This document shows, one piece after another, positions 1-57,000 of a stretch of DNA of 64,000 bases (the stretch's first letter is position 1; the number at the start of each line of letters is the position of its first letter). Source of the DNA: Bdellovibrionales bacterium. GTDB lineage: Bacteria > Bdellovibrionota > Bdellovibrionia > Bdellovibrionales > UBA1609. Made by a program: the position numbers. The DNA lies in assembly GCA_965261545.1 (NCBI GenBank), contig CBDHDF010000011.1, positions 544,001 to 608,000 on the forward strand, read 5' to 3'.

Positions 1-3000
1 ATTGAGGGGGTGGTCATTCATCTCTATAAGTATAAAAACCCAAAGACTGGGGAGTTCTCTGTTTTGGCCACTAATCTTCCGCATGGCTCCTTGGACAAGA
101 AGGATATGGTTGCTCTTTACTCTCGTCGTTGGGAAATAGAAACGACATTTCGTGATTTTACATCGACAATGAAAATGGAGCAGTGGCACTCAACAAGCCT
201 TAATGGAATATTGCAAGAGCTGTATTCTTATTTTTGGCTCTTCAATTATACAAAGATTCAAATGAGCATAAATGAGGATGAAGACAGTGTGAATCAGTTG
301 GTAAAAAATGACTACAAAAAACCTAACTTTAAACTGATTCTTGATTTCATAATGTACAATTGCGCGTATTGCCCGCACTGGTTGCACCCATTACCCTCAC
401 TTTCCCTATTTCAATGCGTCATTGATGATTTTCCTTCCCATTTCTGGGGAAAATTTTAGTTAATTTGTAATCCTATTTCTTCCTATTTTAGGGAAAAGTC
501 CTGGTCAAGTTTTGTTCCCTGGATTTTTCGATAACTCTCTCCTTTAAGTAAAATTTTTATGGCGGTATGCTTCAAACGGTCGATGATAGTATCTGCCAGC
601 ACCTCATCATCAATAATTTCTGACCAATGCGTTATTGGCAGTTGAGTGGTAATAACGGTGGACCTATCGGAACGAAACTTTAAAATATCGCAGAAGTCTG
701 TGGATTCACTTTGGGAGAACTTCCTTAATCCAAAGTCATCAAAAATTAACACTTGGGGGCGGCCCAGACGACGCAAGTAGTTCAAATACCTTCCTGAGTG
801 CCTTTCCAGGGCCAAGGTTTCTAGAAATATGTTGATGTCTATAAACAGTGTGGAGATTCTGGATTGACAACACTGGTGTCCCAGGCTCTGGGCCAAGAAG
901 GTTTTACCCACCCCCGTTGGCCCTTCGACAATGATAGACCTTTGCTCCTTAACCCATGATAAAGTTTGAAGCCTATCCACCTCTCTTTTACTAATAGACC
1001 TTTTGGCATGGTGGTCAAATGCCTCACCTCTGACCTTGTGAGGCAGCTTTGAGGTCTTGAGAAGTCTTTGGCTGAATTGGATTTTCCGAGCCTCCACTTC
1101 TGCAAATAACAGCTCGTTCAATAGATCCAATGCTTGAGTCTTGTGGCTTGTGTTATCCAGCGCCACTTCAAGGCTGTCTAACATTCCATAGAGCTTCAAC
1201 TCATGCATGTGGTTTTTGATTTGTACTTCATCCATCTGGCACCTCCTTGGGGCTTTGGTTATTTGGATTTTCGTTATGTCGCAAATAAGGGTTGCCTTGT
1301 TTACGATCTATTTTCTCGTTCACCTTTTTTATTTTTTGCCCTTTATAGAAATGGAGTTGTTGCTGAAAATATCTAACCCTCCTTTTCTCCCACTGCTTGC
1401 AGTCCTCAAGGGCTTTGATAATGAGAGGAAGGACTTTTCCTTGCCCTCTTTCTGGATTTCTTTGTGACAGGAGCTTACAAAGCCCTAGCTCTTCTGAGAT
1501 TTTCAATGGTCCCACCCTGAAAAAGCTCCTCAATGAAGTTTTCAAGCTCTTTACAAATCATACTTGCTTGAATAAGAATGTTCTGGGGAGTGGCCTCCTT
1601 GTAGGCGCGACTGGGCTCCGGGAGGTGTTCGTTTTTGGTGATGTACTCTCCGAGTTTACCTTTGGTCCTCTTGTGGCGAGCGAGGAGCTGTTTTTGAAAG
1701 TAAATCTCCACACTCTCCACTCCAATTTTTACATCTACATACTCCCCTCGGTGCTGAAACGGAGCCGAGTAGAAGTTGGATTCAACGCTCACATGACAGT
1801 CTTGGTGGAGTTTTTTCTTCTCCCAACGTCCCCACCGGTAGGGAAAAGAAGGCAAGGGTTTTAAAGTTTTTACCTCTCGTTGAAATTTTTCATTGCGAGA
1901 GACCTTAAATCTTGTGTGAGGGCGAGCATTTATCTTCTCGCACACCTCCCTTAAAGCCTTATTAATTTGATCCAGACTGGTGAAGGTCTCTCGTCTGTAC
2001 ATAAACCTGAGGGCCCTTGTAACGAGCTTCACGGCATTCTCAGTAAGGCTTTTATCCTGGGGACGACGAACTCGAGCGGGAACAGCCACCGTGTCATAGT
2101 GTTCCAAAAGCTCTTGGTAGGATTTATTCAACTCTGGATCATACAAATGGGGTGTGTTCACTCCAGTCTTTAAATTATCAGGAACAACCACTCTCGGAAC
2201 CCCACCGTAATATTCAAACATCAGAACGTGAGCGTGAAGAAAATCTTCACTAGATTCGCTCAAAGAGCCATAAGCAAAAATACGCTGAGAGAAACATAGA
2301 TTTGAGCAAAATATATGGGCCTTATGAATATTAAGGTCTTCATCGATCCACTCTGGCTGAAATCCTGCGTAATCAACCTCAACTTGGTGGCCTGGCTGAA
2401 AATCACGCAAGGTAATAATCCTTTTGCCAGCTTTTGGAAATTGCTTATGAAACTCCCTCGTAAACTGGGGGTAGCTAATGACCTTCAGAAATTTTTCCTC
2501 CCAAACGTCACTTAAACAATGCCTATCCTCAATCTCCTTCTCAATAATCTTCCAATCTATACCGTAAGACCAAGGGGGAATTTCTCTTTGGGTCTTCCAA
2601 TCCTTGGGGTCTGTTAAAAGACCACGTCTTATCTTTCTAAGAGTCTTGGTGCAGCATTTCATGCGGCGACTGATTTCTCGGTCGGGAATATTTGCCTTTA
2701 TTAATGATTTTATTTTTGTGTAACGCTCATGATCCATCTTTGTTCTCATTTCGACCTCCTTGGTTAAAGATTGGAGGTCTTTATAGAACATCAATGACGC
2801 TATGCTAAGGGGAATCAGTCATGCCAATCAGTGCGGGCAATGCCATGGTTCGCCGGGCGAACTGAGATAAGATAGGGGGTTAGAGTCCCCCGAGAGGAAG
2901 GTCAACCGACCACTTCTCTCCCCAAGCCGTGCGCTGTCGGCCGTGAGGCCGAAGCGATGTATCGGTAGGGGTGTGTGTGGGCCAAATAATTGAGCGTCGA

Positions 3001-54000: not shown

Positions 54001-57000
54001 TTCACAAGCTTAATCACAGGGGCATCATCATTGCCCGCTTCCAGCAAGTCAATGACGGGATCATCCAAATCGTATTCTTCGCTTTCGATGACATCCAGGC
54101 CCTCAAGGGCAGCCGTACTTTTTTCGTAAACACGATTGATGGCATCCTGAATTTTTTGACTGGTGGTAGTCAGAATCGTCACCTTCTTATCAAACAAAAC
54201 CCTTAGATCGTCCAGGGCCTTGTGCCTAAGGGGATTTGAAGAAAGAATCATCACGGCATCTTTGGTGAATTTGTAAGGAAGAACCTCTTGGCTCTTTGCA
54301 TAATTAATGGGAATACTTCGAACTAAATCCACGGGAATATCATTGGATGGAATATCTTTGATAAAAGGAACATCCAGGTGCTTACAGAGGTCGGCCATGA
54401 CCCCCTCCACCGTATTATAAGTTTTGTCGTCAAGGAACTTTTTAATGGGAATACCATCTTTGTTTGTAAGCCTTAACATGGACTTGAGTTGGTCCTCTTT
54501 AATGCTTGTTCCCTTGAGAAGAAGGGTTTCATAGGAGTATGTTGTGGCCATACTTCTATGGTATCCATGATTGATAAGGTATGACAACTAAGTAATCAAA
54601 AGGTCAGACTTGGTCTTTCGGCTAGATAAGTATTATTTTTAGATTTTGTGAGTGGGTTTAGGAGCGGCGTCGGTGATAGGAAAGAACTGGATATTCAATT
54701 GGTAAATACGATCTCCCTTGGAAAACTCTCTATTGGTGGCCATGGATGTGAAGAAGCGCTTTTTAAGCTGACGAAGTTCAAATTTCATTTTCTCAAACTC
54801 TTTTTCAGTGAGAGCCAAAGTTACGGCACCAAATTCACGGTCTCTAGGTTGGTCTCGAAACAAAGACTCTAGACTAAGATAGATAAATTCTGACTGAAGC
54901 TTTCTCACAATCTCCACAGAAATTTCTTCAGACTTCTCCATGAGAAGACGCTTCTTTTTCATCTTCCCTGTGTTTGTGTCGCACACAAGCTCTCCTGATG
55001 CCAACAGATTCTCCTTAGCCCTTTTGACCATTTCTACAGTCACACGGCCTCGTAGGAGCTTTTGTAGCTCTTGGGGATGGAAAAAAATGTCCCTTTGGTC
55101 CACCATATTGTACAAGACCCAGGTCAACCAATCGGAGGCTTTGTCCCATGTTTGTCCATTGATCTCTCCTTTTTTGATTTGACGACAAACTCGAAGTTCG
55201 GCCAAGGTTTTGAGGGCCTGATTTCGTGCCAAAGAATCCTTGGCTTGGCCGTATTCGACCAAGGCACGAAACTCTTTCAATTCGCTTTTATTGAGTTGGA
55301 GAGCCTTGGAAAATTTATCCATCATGCCAGAGGAGAGATTTCTTTTGCCGTCAATAATAAGTTTTAGGTAGCTGGGAGATTTAATCCCTGCAGCCACACT
55401 GAAGATAGCATAGGAGTAGGGGCGAACCGCCCCTACATCAAGAGTTTTTTTATAATTGTAGAAGTCTTCAAGGTATTTGCGAAAATCTGTATAGCTCCCA
55501 AGGTTGGGTTTGGTGGGCTCAGTGGATTGAGTCGGCTTTGCTAAAGGCAGTTTAACTTTTTTTTGGTTTGTTTTACTTATTTGGCCCGCTTGACTCGTCT
55601 GTGTCGTTTGAACTGAAATCATCTTTTCCAAAACTCCCCTACCTTTTCCAACATTCTCCTGTCTTCCCTTCGTTTTCTTTTCACTTCCATCGGCTTTATA
55701 CTCTTCCATCTGTTTTATACTTTATATTTTATAAAACATTTTACAAATGATTTATTCTTCCATGAGTCCGTGCATGTGTAAAAAGCAAAGTCCTCAAAAG
55801 TATTTTTGATAGATGCAATGCAATATAATATAATATGATAACATAACGCTCTCTTGCTCCCATAAGGTCTTGTTGCAACCTCTAGAAACTTATCCACCCA
55901 GGCGAGTTGGCTGTGCATTGTGCCTTCTGGGGGGCAGTGTGCTTAGCTTGTCGTCTTGTGAACTTGACACCAAGTGCTTTATTGACACTGTTACGCAAGT
56001 AGGTAGGGTAAAGGAATAGGTATTATAAAATCCATTGAAGGGGGGCATGTGGACGTCGATATTTTGGCACTTAACGAAGCCATTAAAAAGGAAAGTCAAT
56101 TTGTAGACAAAACTCTTCAAGAAGCCTCTAAGGTGATTGTCGGCCAGAAGGATATGTTAGAGGGAATTGTCATGGGCCTATTGACAGGGGGGCATGTTCT
56201 TTTAGAGGGGCTTCCAGGGTTGGCAAAGACTCTCACTATTTCTGCCATTTCCCAATCTGTGGACTTAAAGTTTCAGAGGATTCAATTTACACCAGATTTA
56301 CTTCCCACAGACCTCATTGGAACCATGATCTTTAATCCAAAAACAGGGGAGTTTGCACCCAAAAAGGGCCCCATTTTCACCAATATTGTCTTGGCCGATG
56401 AAATCAACCGAGCCCCGGCCAAAGTCCAGAGCGCTCTTCTTGAGGCTATGGGAGAAAAGCAGGTGACCATTGGAGATGAGTCTTACAAACTCGATAGTCC
56501 TTTTCTTGTTCTGGCTACTCAAAACCCCTTGGAGCAAGAGGGAACTTACCCCTTACCCGAAGCCCAGCTTGATCGCTTTATGTTTAAGGTTATTGTCTCC
56601 TACCCTGACAAAGTGGAGGAGCTTGAGATACTCAATCGCATGTCCAAGTCGGTGATGCCTCAAATTAAGCCTGTGATTCACCAAGAGGAGTTGATGAAAG
56701 CCCGGCAGAGAGTGGATGATATCTACATTGATGATAAGTTAAAGAATTATATTGTTGAAATTGTTATGGCCACTCGGAAGCCTGGCGACTATGGATTGGG
56801 TCATATTCAAGACCTTCTCAGTGTGGGCGCTTCTCCTCGGGCCACGATCAACCTCACCAAAGCGGCTCGTGCCCATGCCTTCTTAAAAGCAAGGGGCTAT
56901 GTGACGGCCGATGACATTAAAGCTGTGGCCTACCATGTTCTCAGGCACCGCCTCATTCTCACCTATGAGGCCGAAGCTGAAAGTGTGACCAGCGAAGAGA

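Follow-up and report, generated by a model that had tools for sequence, protein, structure and literature searches.

A Bdellovibrionales genome laden with nested insertion sequences, probably that of a non-swimming bacterium that scavenges its cell wall

Results

The window analyzed here is a stretch of 64,000 nucleotides of contig CBDHDF010000011.1 from assembly GCA_965261545.1 (coded G000; other G numbers denote relatives in its family). Repeated DNA accounted for 50.0% of positions 1-56,000 and was unevenly distributed, with 95.8% of positions 1-27,300 and 5.0% of positions 27,301-64,000 being repeated. The following features were identified:

1..27300, no strand: nest of insertion sequences (IS), one of 62 repeat runs of at least 10 kb in the genome (1.33 Mb in total)
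483..2794, reverse: IS21-family istA (1475-2794; Pfam Mu-transpos_C_2/rve) and istB (483-1235; IstB_IS21), from clusters of 16 and 17 genes, respectively
3546..5180, reverse: large serine recombinase of an 11-gene family
5444..6625, forward: reverse transcriptase (RVT_1) of a 10-gene family, with 98% copies elsewhere
7424..10053, reverse: split IS256 transposase (7424-8362, 9736-10053), into which a copy of the most abundant element (IS4-type; transposase at 8349-9395) has inserted
11555..12919, forward: transposase of a 2,159-bp DDE_Tnp_1/DUF772 element with 39 full copies in the genome
13666..16052, forward: istA-istB of a 3,244-bp IS21 element with 31 full copies and 5-bp duplications
16771..19055, no strand: fragments of IS110 (16771-17130), istB (17162-17932) and IS4 (18369-19055)
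19339..24067, no strand: three-layer nest, in which a 1,732-bp element (21599-23330) splits a 1,925-bp element (about 20063-23791) that in turn splits an outer DDE transposase (19339-20067, 23810-24067); joint 21598>23331 found with 8 shared letters
24050..25944, reverse: whole IS256 copy (transposase 24669-25871), with word depth 30-42 times that of the core in three runs; joint 24049>25945, 8 shared letters
27844..34257, reverse: IS-free core with polyprenyl synthase, DUF3108, FtsX/ABC and GDSL lipase genes
35090..36888, forward: polymorphic insertion containing IS66; its empty site is present in run X1, where a 10.8-kb contig links 35089 to 36889 with 8 shared letters
36907..62237, no strand: IS-free core with radical SAM, PBP1A-type (40314-42524), type II secretion (T2SS; gspD to gspE, 42521-54587) and DUF4423 genes and a MoxR-vWA operon

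In a self-megablast of the whole genome (at least 300 bp, at least 90% identity), repeats covered 1,906,899 of 4,315,628 bases (44.2%; 23-99% per contig), which reproduces the share claimed in an earlier note on this DNA. The value was 42.8% when limited to the six large contigs, 38.3% for repeats of at least 1 kb and 35.9% at 99% identity or more. The longest repeat pairs (16.2, 13.5 and 11.6 kb at 96.7-98.5%) likewise agreed with the 16 kb at 96-98% given previously, as did the counts of IstB genes (127 in clusters vs. 128), the IS256 cluster (81 in both), nine VirB4 and nine TrbI loci, and the completeness (96.83) and contamination (3.66) of the 11-contig assembly. A large share of genes in families of three or more was also recovered, although with other counts: 95 families with 1,380 of 3,308 genes (own ORF caller, at least 80 amino acids) vs. 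the 1,814 of 3,913 claimed.

Insertion sequences of more than 20 families made up 31.0% of the genome, and Pfam-named IS clusters, helper genes and fragments included, comprised 929 of 3,308 genes (28%). Full copies differed by 0.11-0.62%, and 284 of 307 had whole frames. The most abundant element, labelled IS4 on the basis of plasmid matches to its transposase at 22-26% identity only, is 1,417 bp long and occurs in 170 pieces totalling 160,058 bp (about 113 element-equivalents). Since only 77 copies run end to end, the 117 copies reported earlier for a 1,423-bp element include fragments. The absence of this element from relatives, also reported, carries little weight, because no full-length RpoB match exceeded 82% identity and 80 of 108 relatives are assembled in more than 10 contigs.

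IS ends displayed terminal inverted repeats, sharp boundaries and matching target duplications at distinct sites. In six families, duplications flanked 47/77, 31/37, 24/31, 14/15, 11/16 and 8/10 full copies (shuffled flank pairs, at most 0.07), and no strong target consensus was seen in six families. Private IS changes leaned from GC to AT. The 384 full copies represented 368 distinct insertion sites, only 43 of which lay in unique DNA, vs. 52.7% expected for random positions. Moreover, 8 of these 43 cut an open frame, compared to 62% of random unique sites, so that frames in unique DNA were cut by 8 of 384 full copies. These data show that more than 20 unrelated IS families move independently and that surviving insertions lie nearly all in mobile or intergenic DNA. 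Some elements may aim at IS ends by design, which would raise nesting without selection.

Read evidence consisted of assembled contigs from runs of one sample, possibly the source of the assembly. IS copy number was visible in read depth, and the empty-site allele came from this same sample. Two haplotypes about 0.5% apart were present at the IS-free block 27844..34257, with a pN/pS of about 0.26 from 17 coding differences. In run X4, from a second study, only IS were covered and almost none of the core was, so this run bears neither on habitat nor on the presence of a second strain.

The repeat share might be raised by merged strains, as the earlier note had considered, or by mis-resolved repeats. 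Consistent with this, the sample holds at least two haplotypes, haplotype-like overlaps occur close to contig ends (10.4 kb at 99.3%, 6.7 kb at 98.2% and two of 3 kb at 98.4-98.6%), one tandem triple is letter-perfect, and the contamination estimate is above zero (3.66%). However, the contig-end overlaps sum to well under 1% of the genome, repeats with merely one or two partners amount to 9.0% in total, and 16S, rpoB and purM are single-copy. An assembly artefact is contradicted by the target duplications paired at full IS copies, by IS read depths tens of times that of the core and by the empty-site allele; it was thereby ruled out as the main cause, and we consider it extremely improbable. 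The genome is probably a working core of 2.4 Mb plus approximately 1.9 Mb of mobile DNA in which copying is ongoing.

Among orthologues sampled outside repeats (at least 40% identity), 110 of 124 (G043) and 69 of 77 (G009) were whole, and 5 and 4, respectively, had a stop or were split. This confirmed that core genes are mostly whole; therefore, selection still operates. Gene order and skew were scrambled: only 37/68 and 23/43 adjacent orthologue pairs remained together, about half being separated, so that both IS proliferation and rearrangement were seen. In a quick tree, the RpoB branch of G000 was 0.34 long, compared to 0.20-0.34 in its sisters and up to 1.1 in reduced lineages. RpoB thus shows no clear acceleration and GC remains at 41-42%, so that the data give no evident sign of strong drift. 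Genes for type IV pilus ATPases, T2SS, the TCA cycle, respiration, RecA/MutS and purine and NAD synthesis were kept, which agrees with the earlier description of a piliated, secreting cell (pilus genes being named from similarity to GspE/F/D).

Within the nine conjugative spans, repeats other than IS amounted to only 3.5% of the genome. Two VirB4 types were found across the nine loci, copies were 96-98% identical, and no Pfam match to TraU, TraN, TraH or TraW was obtained among the conjugative genes scanned. At a type I-C CRISPR-Cas locus, Cas7 lacked its N-terminal part beside an IS4 copy and two IS lay between cas1 and a 5-spacer array; at a type III-B locus, cas10 was followed by an IS. No self-targeting was detected for the six spacer stretches examined (the type III array being parsed partly), and 19 of 21 CRISPR-like matches consisted of tandem units that were almost identical, most with a period of 72-75.

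These damaged or interrupted loci, together with the nine conjugation modules, could suggest that defence failed first, with IS disabling CRISPR-Cas, conjugative elements bringing in new IS and lifestyle being incidental. We regard this sequence of events as highly unlikely. CRISPR acts at the entry of elements and not on copies made inside the genome, and IS blooms recur in three branches of the family. Further, the cas loci are cut by IS of the young families and may thus have been damaged as a consequence of the bloom.

The losses in G000 concerned motility and wall synthesis. Flagellin and MotA were absent, both being present in G043 and G009, and the export-gate family FlhA/SctV, found in 59 of 108 relatives, was missing as well. 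MurA and MurE gave no match, vs. 105 and 106 of 108 relatives. Only three Mur ligases, typed MurD, MurF and Mpl, were found; MurC was missing, and GlnA was not found. By tblastn, neither MurB, MurI nor DapA/B/D/F were detected; for DapB this search replaced the family profile, whose cut-off was too strict (61/108 relatives). E. coli Cas1 and Cas3 queries matched nothing although a type I-C Cas1 exists in G000, so that an absence based on E. coli queries alone (murB, murI, dapD, dapF, folC, aroG, tig and others) counts for less than one based on profiles. A search for MCPs was empty in G000 and in the flagellated G009 alike. No remnants of the lost genes were found, the losses being clean deletions.

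Gene content thus shows a bacterium predicted to lack a flagellum, glutamine synthetase and any de novo route to MurNAc-tripeptide. Conversely, with these de novo genes absent, the predicted salvage route is complete: AmpG scored above cut-off, AmgK- and MurU-like neighbours were present below cut-off, an LdcA-Mpl fusion was followed by an amidase, and MurF was retained. AnmK was absent from the five genomes examined; hence, only non-anhydro MurNAc would be salvageable by known enzymes. Tannerella is a comparable MurNAc auxotroph. Of the marks of a swimming predator, the flagellum was absent, and type IV pili, T2SS and an S13 endopeptidase, the last also present in reduced kin, were found. Having lost both flagellum and wall precursor synthesis, G000 apparently must live off other bacteria, and 'largely self-sufficient', as it had been called, does not describe it.

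Nor is G000 a singular case, since G008 (about 30% repeats) and G091 (about 21%; both estimates) bloom too. G008, on another branch of the RpoB tree, also lacks MurA and MurE and has the same three Mur ligases; it retains the flagellar export gate, and G000 the C-ring. G091 blooms but retains MurA and MurE, as do most tiny genomes, so a bloom does not require mur loss, and mur loss does not mark reduced genomes in general. Transposase candidates numbered 35 in G051 and 21 in G061, both flagellated, and G042 is flagellated yet without GlnA. A 113-kb concatemer suspected in G091 (contig C11) was discarded, as the one pair tested had just a 1-kb IS in common.

Discussion

We propose, with a probability of roughly 0.6, that G000 does not swim, depends on other bacteria for wall material that it scavenges, is probably associated with a host and carries IS nests that expand themselves. 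Judging from its genes, it would be a surface-bound predator, epibiont or scavenger relying on other bacteria for MurNAc and DAP-peptide; a dense community associated with a host is its most likely setting. In small, poorly mixed populations, the mild cost of extra DNA would not be purged, while insertions hitting needed genes still would be. Dead conjugative elements and older IS would serve as neutral landing sites, and every new copy would widen the neutral target, so that nests grow by positive feedback. The IS-cut CRISPR-Cas loci may have eased the entry of new elements.

The earlier note took G000 for a predator-like bacterium that lives outside host cells, can largely support itself and has gone through a single, very recent explosion of mobile elements. 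In its favor are the closeness and intactness of IS copies, the scarcity of older repeats (47.7% at 100 bp and 80% identity or more vs. 39.7% at 98% or more), the empty-site allele within the same sample and an intact core metabolism; moreover, Bdellovibrio-type predators are auxotrophs anyway. However, G000 has neither a flagellum nor the de novo synthesis of wall precursors, traits that hardly any flagellated relative lacks, and the gene losses, lacking remnants, are apparently older than the IS copies. Conjugative copies are also older, and about half of neighboring orthologue pairs are separated. That the copies look young fits a steady turnover no less than a single burst. We consider this scenario improbable.

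An endosymbiotic life in a eukaryotic cell that feeds on bacteria (amoeba, ciliate or sponge cell), at an early point of genome reduction and with wall fragments coming from the host's prey, appears unlikely, albeit less so. It would account for what is missing (GlnA, the flagellum and mur genes); in G008, where the mur losses recur, 37 ankyrin matches were obtained, DUF285 cargo and Rpn expansions were seen, and Legionella needs AmgK inside host cells, according to PMC11957156. Against it, the nine ankyrin matches of G000 lie in one ORF, a FlhA/SctV-family gene is absent, pili, T2SS, TCA cycle and purine and NAD synthesis are retained, and core pseudogenes are few compared with up to 20% reported for Piscirickettsia (PMC10689435). 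No ATP/ADP translocase was found in five genomes, nor in the positive controls.

The scavenging dependant that we favor shares traits with several known systems. Orientia tsutsugamushi has 33-51% repeats (at least 1 kb, at most 100 differences; PMC6005640), and the 38% in G000 at 1 kb or more confirms young, real repeats on that scale, with core islands amid repeats and scrambled order and skew. The likeness ends there: IS make up 14.7% of Orientia (PMC4369082), whose repeats derive mainly from one F-type conjugative element (OtAGE/RAGE) and whose pseudogenes are many, whereas in G000 IS DNA (31%) far exceeds conjugative repeats (3.5%) and no such element dominates. The extracellular anglerfish symbionts Ca. 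Enterovibrio luxaltus and escacola resemble G000, not known to be intracellular, in transposase share (28-31% of genes; PMC6020299) and in IS-free blocks over needed genes. However, all their transposases are pseudogenes of few families, their genomes are halved and their flagella retained; in G000, by contrast, mostly whole copies from many families sit in an enlarged genome that has lost the flagellum. Piscirickettsia salmonis, with 331-848 transposase genes (10.5-21.1% of genes), called the highest number reported (PMC10689435), shares the hundreds of transposases of many types and an intermediate stage of dependence, but largely keeps synteny within groups, while G000 has a larger share and broken synteny. 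Free-living Crocosphaera watsonii (23.1% IS) and Microcystis (14.3%; PMC4369082) also carry heavy loads without intracellular life; they are autotrophs without such dependence, and their shares lie below 31%, methods differing. IS blooms outside host cells are thus already published, at lower shares, and the novelty claimed earlier for such a load is not supported.

Also comparable in the literature searched, which left most subscription journals outside and held no direct precedent, are the sponge Bdellovibrionota B11/B12 (1.2-1.7 Mb, low GC, flagellum and pili lost, PBPs kept; PMC9944714). They share with G000 the order, the missing flagellum and the PBPs, and RBG_16_40_8, nearest relative of B12, falls within the family of G000 in our RpoB tree. 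Unlike these small genomes and the ankyrin-rich B11, G000 has 4.3 Mb, retains pili and lies outside the long-branch small-genome groups. Known peptidoglycan salvage (AmpG-NagZ-LdcA-Mpl; AmgK-MurU, bypassing MurA/MurB; PMC11957156) uses the same enzymes, but in G000 the sugar (MurA/B) and peptide (MurC/E/I, Dap) branches are both missing, with LdcA and Mpl fused and MurD present although its partners are absent.

More tentatively, G000 could be a bacterium living outside eukaryotic cells, its core under purifying selection, whose IS share (31%, mostly intact and active) exceeds that of every other case compared because its nests are neutral targets that expand by themselves, much as in large plant genomes. 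Blooms might then recur in Bdellovibrionales as swimming predators turn sessile, G000 and G008 having independently become total peptidoglycan scavengers, with the flagellum dismantled in complementary halves.

G000 separates two things usually found together, runaway IS copying and core-gene decay. The idea of neutral landing sites is testable within one population, by comparing fixed and polymorphic insertions. Short-read genomes hide IS loads, relatives of the top transposase lying mostly on 1-3 kb contigs. Finally, the findings point to an undescribed lifestyle in Bdellovibrionales, without a flagellum and with a wall built from the wall fragments of others, which would have been reached twice.

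Repeat content and layout

Self-megablast of the 4,315,628-bp genome under study (G000, 11 contigs) reproduced the 44.2% share of repeats (at least 300 bp at 90% identity or more) reported in the earlier note. Repeats at 99% identity or more made up 35.9%, those of at least 1 kb 38.3% and those of at least 10 kb 2.4%; when only the six large contigs were compared, 42.8% was repeated. The repeats were clumped, covering 0 to 99% of individual 50-kb bins and leaving unique blocks of up to 71 kb, and GC skew was without a two-arm pattern. Both states occur in the window, C11:544,001-608,000, namely a 27-kb nest of mostly IS DNA (95.8% repeated) and core DNA with working genes (5.0%).

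When the genes of the window and representative members of the multi-copy families were run against Pfam, transposases of the DDE_Tnp_1 (IS4/IS5-type), IS256, IS21, IS110, IS3, ISL3, IS66 and IS91 kinds were identified, together with Rpn nucleases, recombinases of the serine and tyrosine types, and reverse transcriptases. The IS element library covered 31.0% of the genome, and Pfam-named IS clusters held 929 of the 3,308 called genes. Non-IS repeats comprised Rpn genes (1.3%), recombinases and reverse transcriptases (jointly 1.3%), nine conjugative spans (3.5%) and a further 7.6% without assigned type. The nine VirB4-type conjugation modules noted earlier were recovered as nine VirB4 and nine TrbI loci, three belonging to one type (97.6–100% alike) and six, in four variants, to a second; they are not filed as RAGE, because no TraU, TraN, TraH or TraW domain was found by Pfam among the conjugative genes scanned.

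Most genes of the three-copy conjugative element (C10:60,000-75,000, stretch L219; C10:210-222 kb; C11:966-976 kb) are unnamed; the others include a TraC-like VirB4, TrbI and a T2SSE-family ATPase adjoining a 1,080-aa coupling protein. In the second type, the coupling protein is FtsK-like. Genome-wide, 69 Rpn/YhgA-like nuclease genes (e.g., L228:3185-4150 and L225:13627-14451) form three clusters at about 91–94% identity, which are older than the IS. Some 14 loci have 75-bp tandem units, one family being typed DUF285. ARAGORN reported two tmRNA and three tRNA-Gln(ttg) genes, the extra ones being perhaps duplications at integration sites.

Transposition and age of the copies

The IS survey covered 21 families and 384 end-to-end copies, which occupy 368 distinct sites. 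In six families, matching duplications flanked 47/77, 31/37, 24/31, 14/15, 11/16 and 8/10 copies, and two more showed them at 33/39 (2 bp) and 20/21 (3 bp); in shuffled-flank controls, matches of 4 bp or more appeared in at most 7% of pairs. Three larger families had nearly none (0/24, 0/12 and 2/25), in part owing to how element ends were set. Further, word depth in three runs of one sample (window 20001-40000) was 3–4 in the core and 92–184 in an IS256 copy, i.e., 30–42 times the core, compared with 37 full copies in the assembly; these depths were counted on contigs and are rough, and the assembly may itself derive from these runs.

In run X1, a 10.8-kb contig links window position 35089 to 36889 with 8 shared letters. 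This contig shows the site empty of its IS66-containing insertion; insertion sites therefore vary within the sample. Another X1 contig, from the core, showed 23 letter differences in 4.9 kb and run X2 none there, which implies at least two haplotypes. Strain merging would inflate repeats, and haplotype-like overlaps close to contig ends do occur, totalling under 1% of the genome; that the repeat load is an assembly artefact is extremely improbable. Many IS families transpose independently, with nesting, and the core is spared.

Copies of 11 families differed on average by 0.11–0.62%; some changes were shared between copies and others private, and the reading frame was whole in 284 of 307. This divergence is of the same order as that between haplotypes. 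Conjugative copies were 96–98% alike. The copies are indeed young, as the description of a very recent burst had it; a single burst and steady turnover would each fit. The gene losses described below look older than the IS copies: fliN is directly followed by a shortened flhF, the export genes that stand between them in the relatives G043 and G009 having left no trace, and only 37 of 68 and 23 of 43 neighbouring orthologue pairs are still adjacent. A single burst in a free-living organism would agree with the young copies and sits poorly with these losses; we consider it improbable.

Selection on the core

Unique DNA flanked both sides at 43 of the 368 IS sites (52.7% for random positions), and an open frame was cut at 8 of these 43 (62% for random unique sites, 0.65% in shuffled DNA). 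Fixed insertions hit core genes in 2% of cases, where chance would give about 35%. No strong target consensus was found in the six families examined, one of which favours AT-rich sites. Good orthologues sampled from G043 were whole in 110 of 124 cases (3 with a stop, 2 split, 9 partial) and those from G009 in 69 of 77 (2, 2 and 4, respectively), which bears out the view that most core genes are whole. The sampled ORFs (378 and 228) included 168 and 98 without a match, 85 and 51 weak matches, and 1 and 2 in repeats; the no-match share overstates loss, since flagellar regions were over-represented in the two samples. Haplotype differences in a core block (18 listed of the 23 on that X1 contig) were 9 synonymous, 8 non-synonymous and 1 intergenic, a pN/pS of about 0.26 from a small sample. 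Selection still acts on the core.

Two CRISPR-Cas loci are present, both cut by IS:

C11:746,558-752,300 (L291), type III-B (Csx1, Cmr1, Cas10); an IS follows cas10
C11:790,800-804,430 (part in L292), type I-C (Cas7 part, Cas4, Cas1)

The type I-C Cas7, which adjoins an IS4 copy, covers no more than positions 122-275 of the 284 in its profile, and two IS stand between cas1 and a 5-spacer array. None of the spacers tested matched the genome itself. Failed defence as the explanation would accord with this damage, which may be either cause or result of the IS load; we hold that explanation to be highly unlikely.

Loss of motility and of wall synthesis

Neither flagellin nor MotA was found in G000, and it has no FlhA/SctV family member, of which 59 of 108 relatives have one. 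A flagellar remnant persists as open frames:

C7:44,728-47,821 (L280), flagellar remnant
C10:752,712-757,726 (L281), flagellar remnant

It encodes a C-terminal FliF, whole FliG, FliM, FliN and FliL, the GTPase half of FlhF, FlhG and a FliA-like sigma factor, without export gate, filament or stator. Among the 109 genomes, G000 alone has FliM without FlhA at >78% completeness; both are absent in ten genera (45 genomes, mostly small). By analogy with Campylobacter, where such parts are reported to place the division site (PMC6946799), division-site placement is a possible reason for their retention.

MurA and MurE, present in 105 and 106 of the 108 relatives, were not found in G000, nor was glutamine synthetase (64 of 108 relatives positive); MurB, MurI, DapA, DapB, DapD and DapF gave no tblastn match. 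Only three Mur ligases were detected, typed by tree and profiles as MurD, MurF and Mpl, compared with five or six in four relatives. Assembly gaps are an unlikely cause, because the expected places of murE (after ftsI) and murC (after murG) are taken by other genes mid-contig. Salvage genes are kept: AmpG, Alr, Ddl and two NagZ-like genes, besides MurF, MraY, MurG and PBPs; LdcA is present as a fusion with Mpl, and an amidase gene comes after it.

C2:820,175-823,686 (L275, L279); C11:28,278-30,472 (L288); C11:621,873-623,210 (L290), LdcA-Mpl fusion (798 aa) then amidase, and wall loci

AmgK- and MurU-like genes, both below curated cut-offs, are neighbours, and an AmgK-MurU bypass of MurA/B has been described (PMC11957156). 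On paper, the predicted salvage route is complete. Since de novo wall genes are missing and salvage is kept, we infer that G000 probably depends on the walls of other bacteria. The genome retains the TCA cycle, complex I, a haem-copper oxidase, ATP synthase, lipid A, purine, NAD, riboflavin and haem genes, RecA, MutS, UvrD, pilus ATPases, two PilC-like genes, a second secretin and T2SS; given the losses in wall, glutamine and flagellar genes, the earlier description as largely self-sufficient does not hold. Queries from G043 gave no match for mutM, gidB or feoB. The MurD is 73% identical to that of G043 despite the loss of MurC and MurE, and murA/B/C/E/I and dapA/B/D/F are missing from a genome that has an LdcA-Mpl fusion and shares its Mur trio with the relative G008.

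Relatives and other blooms

G000 is the sole member of its genus (best full-length RpoB match 82%). A quick RpoB tree (95 rows, leaving aside 6 short loci) placed it with genera g10, g48 and g25 (SH-aLRT 95); its position is in Bdellovibrionales, neither in Bdellovibrio proper nor among the long-branch 1.2–2.3 Mb lineages. RBG_16_40_8, to which one of the published flagellum-less reduced sponge Bdellovibrionota is nearest (PMC9944714), nests inside the family in this tree. Insertions such as inteins are suggested by two rpoB matches of unusual length: the one in L028 (301 bp flanks, match 3-6090) extends over 6 kb, and the one in G059 (C1:2,091,106-2,095,662) falls into three pieces within a 1,532-aa frame.

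At first look, DDE_Tnp_1 candidates numbered 341 in G000, 223 in G008, 157 in G091, 42 in G106, 35 in G051, 22 in G092, 21 in G061, 4 in G043 and 3 in G042. Repeat shares within samples of 18–20 stretches of 20 kb (a few picked for other reasons) were 22.9% in G008, 16.3% in G091 and 0.9% in G043; as equally proportioned G000 samples yield 32.5% for a true 41–43%, repeats amount to roughly 30% in G008 and 21% in G091. In G091, identical IS matches at C11:331,031, 444,194 and 557,358 are spaced by 113,163-113,164 bp, which may reflect a tandem or a concatemer artefact; only the IS was common to the one pair tested, 217,931/331,031.

MurA and MurE were not found in G008, which has the same three ligases, and both are kept in G091. 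Apart from G008, MurE was missed in G109, a genome with five ligases, and MurA in genomes that are either fragmented or only 72% complete. G008 mirrors the flagellar remnant, keeping FliL, FliO, FliP, FliR, FlhA, FlhF and FliA (C2:942,500-950,400; L162:7582-15352), with FliM, FliG and flagellin not found, which suggests an export gate possibly turned secretion system; this genome also has many ankyrin genes. The rarity of blooms among swimmers is weakly tested, since IS collapse in assemblies of >10 contigs, the state of 80 of the 108 relatives, and only three of the flagellated genomes are near-closed.

G000 is not rich in ankyrin repeats, with nine matches, all in one ORF, against 34 (G017) and 37 (G008) over many genes. 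This 1,327-aa ORF, the sole one of its kind in G000 (C2:35,774-39,757; L223:6775-10758), adjoins a conjugative element. A symbiosis with a phagocytic eukaryote would suit the lost motility, and the single ankyrin ORF offers it little; we think it rather unlikely.

Interpretation

We favour a sessile life on other bacteria, probably within a host-associated community, which would weaken selection against bulk DNA and not against broken genes; nests would then widen their own neutral target. As a whole explanation, this has a probability of roughly 0.6.

According to published reports, Orientia genomes are 33–51% repetitive (PMC6005640), with an IS share of only 14.7% (PMC4369082), unlike the 31.0% of G000; Crocosphaera and Microcystis have 23.1% and 14.3% (PMC4369082), extracellular anglerfish symbionts have 28–31% transposase genes, all pseudogenes (PMC6020299), and Piscirickettsia 331–848 transposase genes (PMC10689435). 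Methods differ between papers, so that "highest" applies to the IS share only within the comparisons made here. The standard view ties IS proliferation to recent host restriction, with exceptions (PMC5091035). Heavy loads outside host cells were therefore already known from the anglerfish symbionts and cyanobacteria, and novelty on that ground falls away. An IS bloom in Bdellovibrionales was found nowhere in the literature that could be searched; what is new in G000 is how large its live IS share is, how many families are active and that the core is spared.
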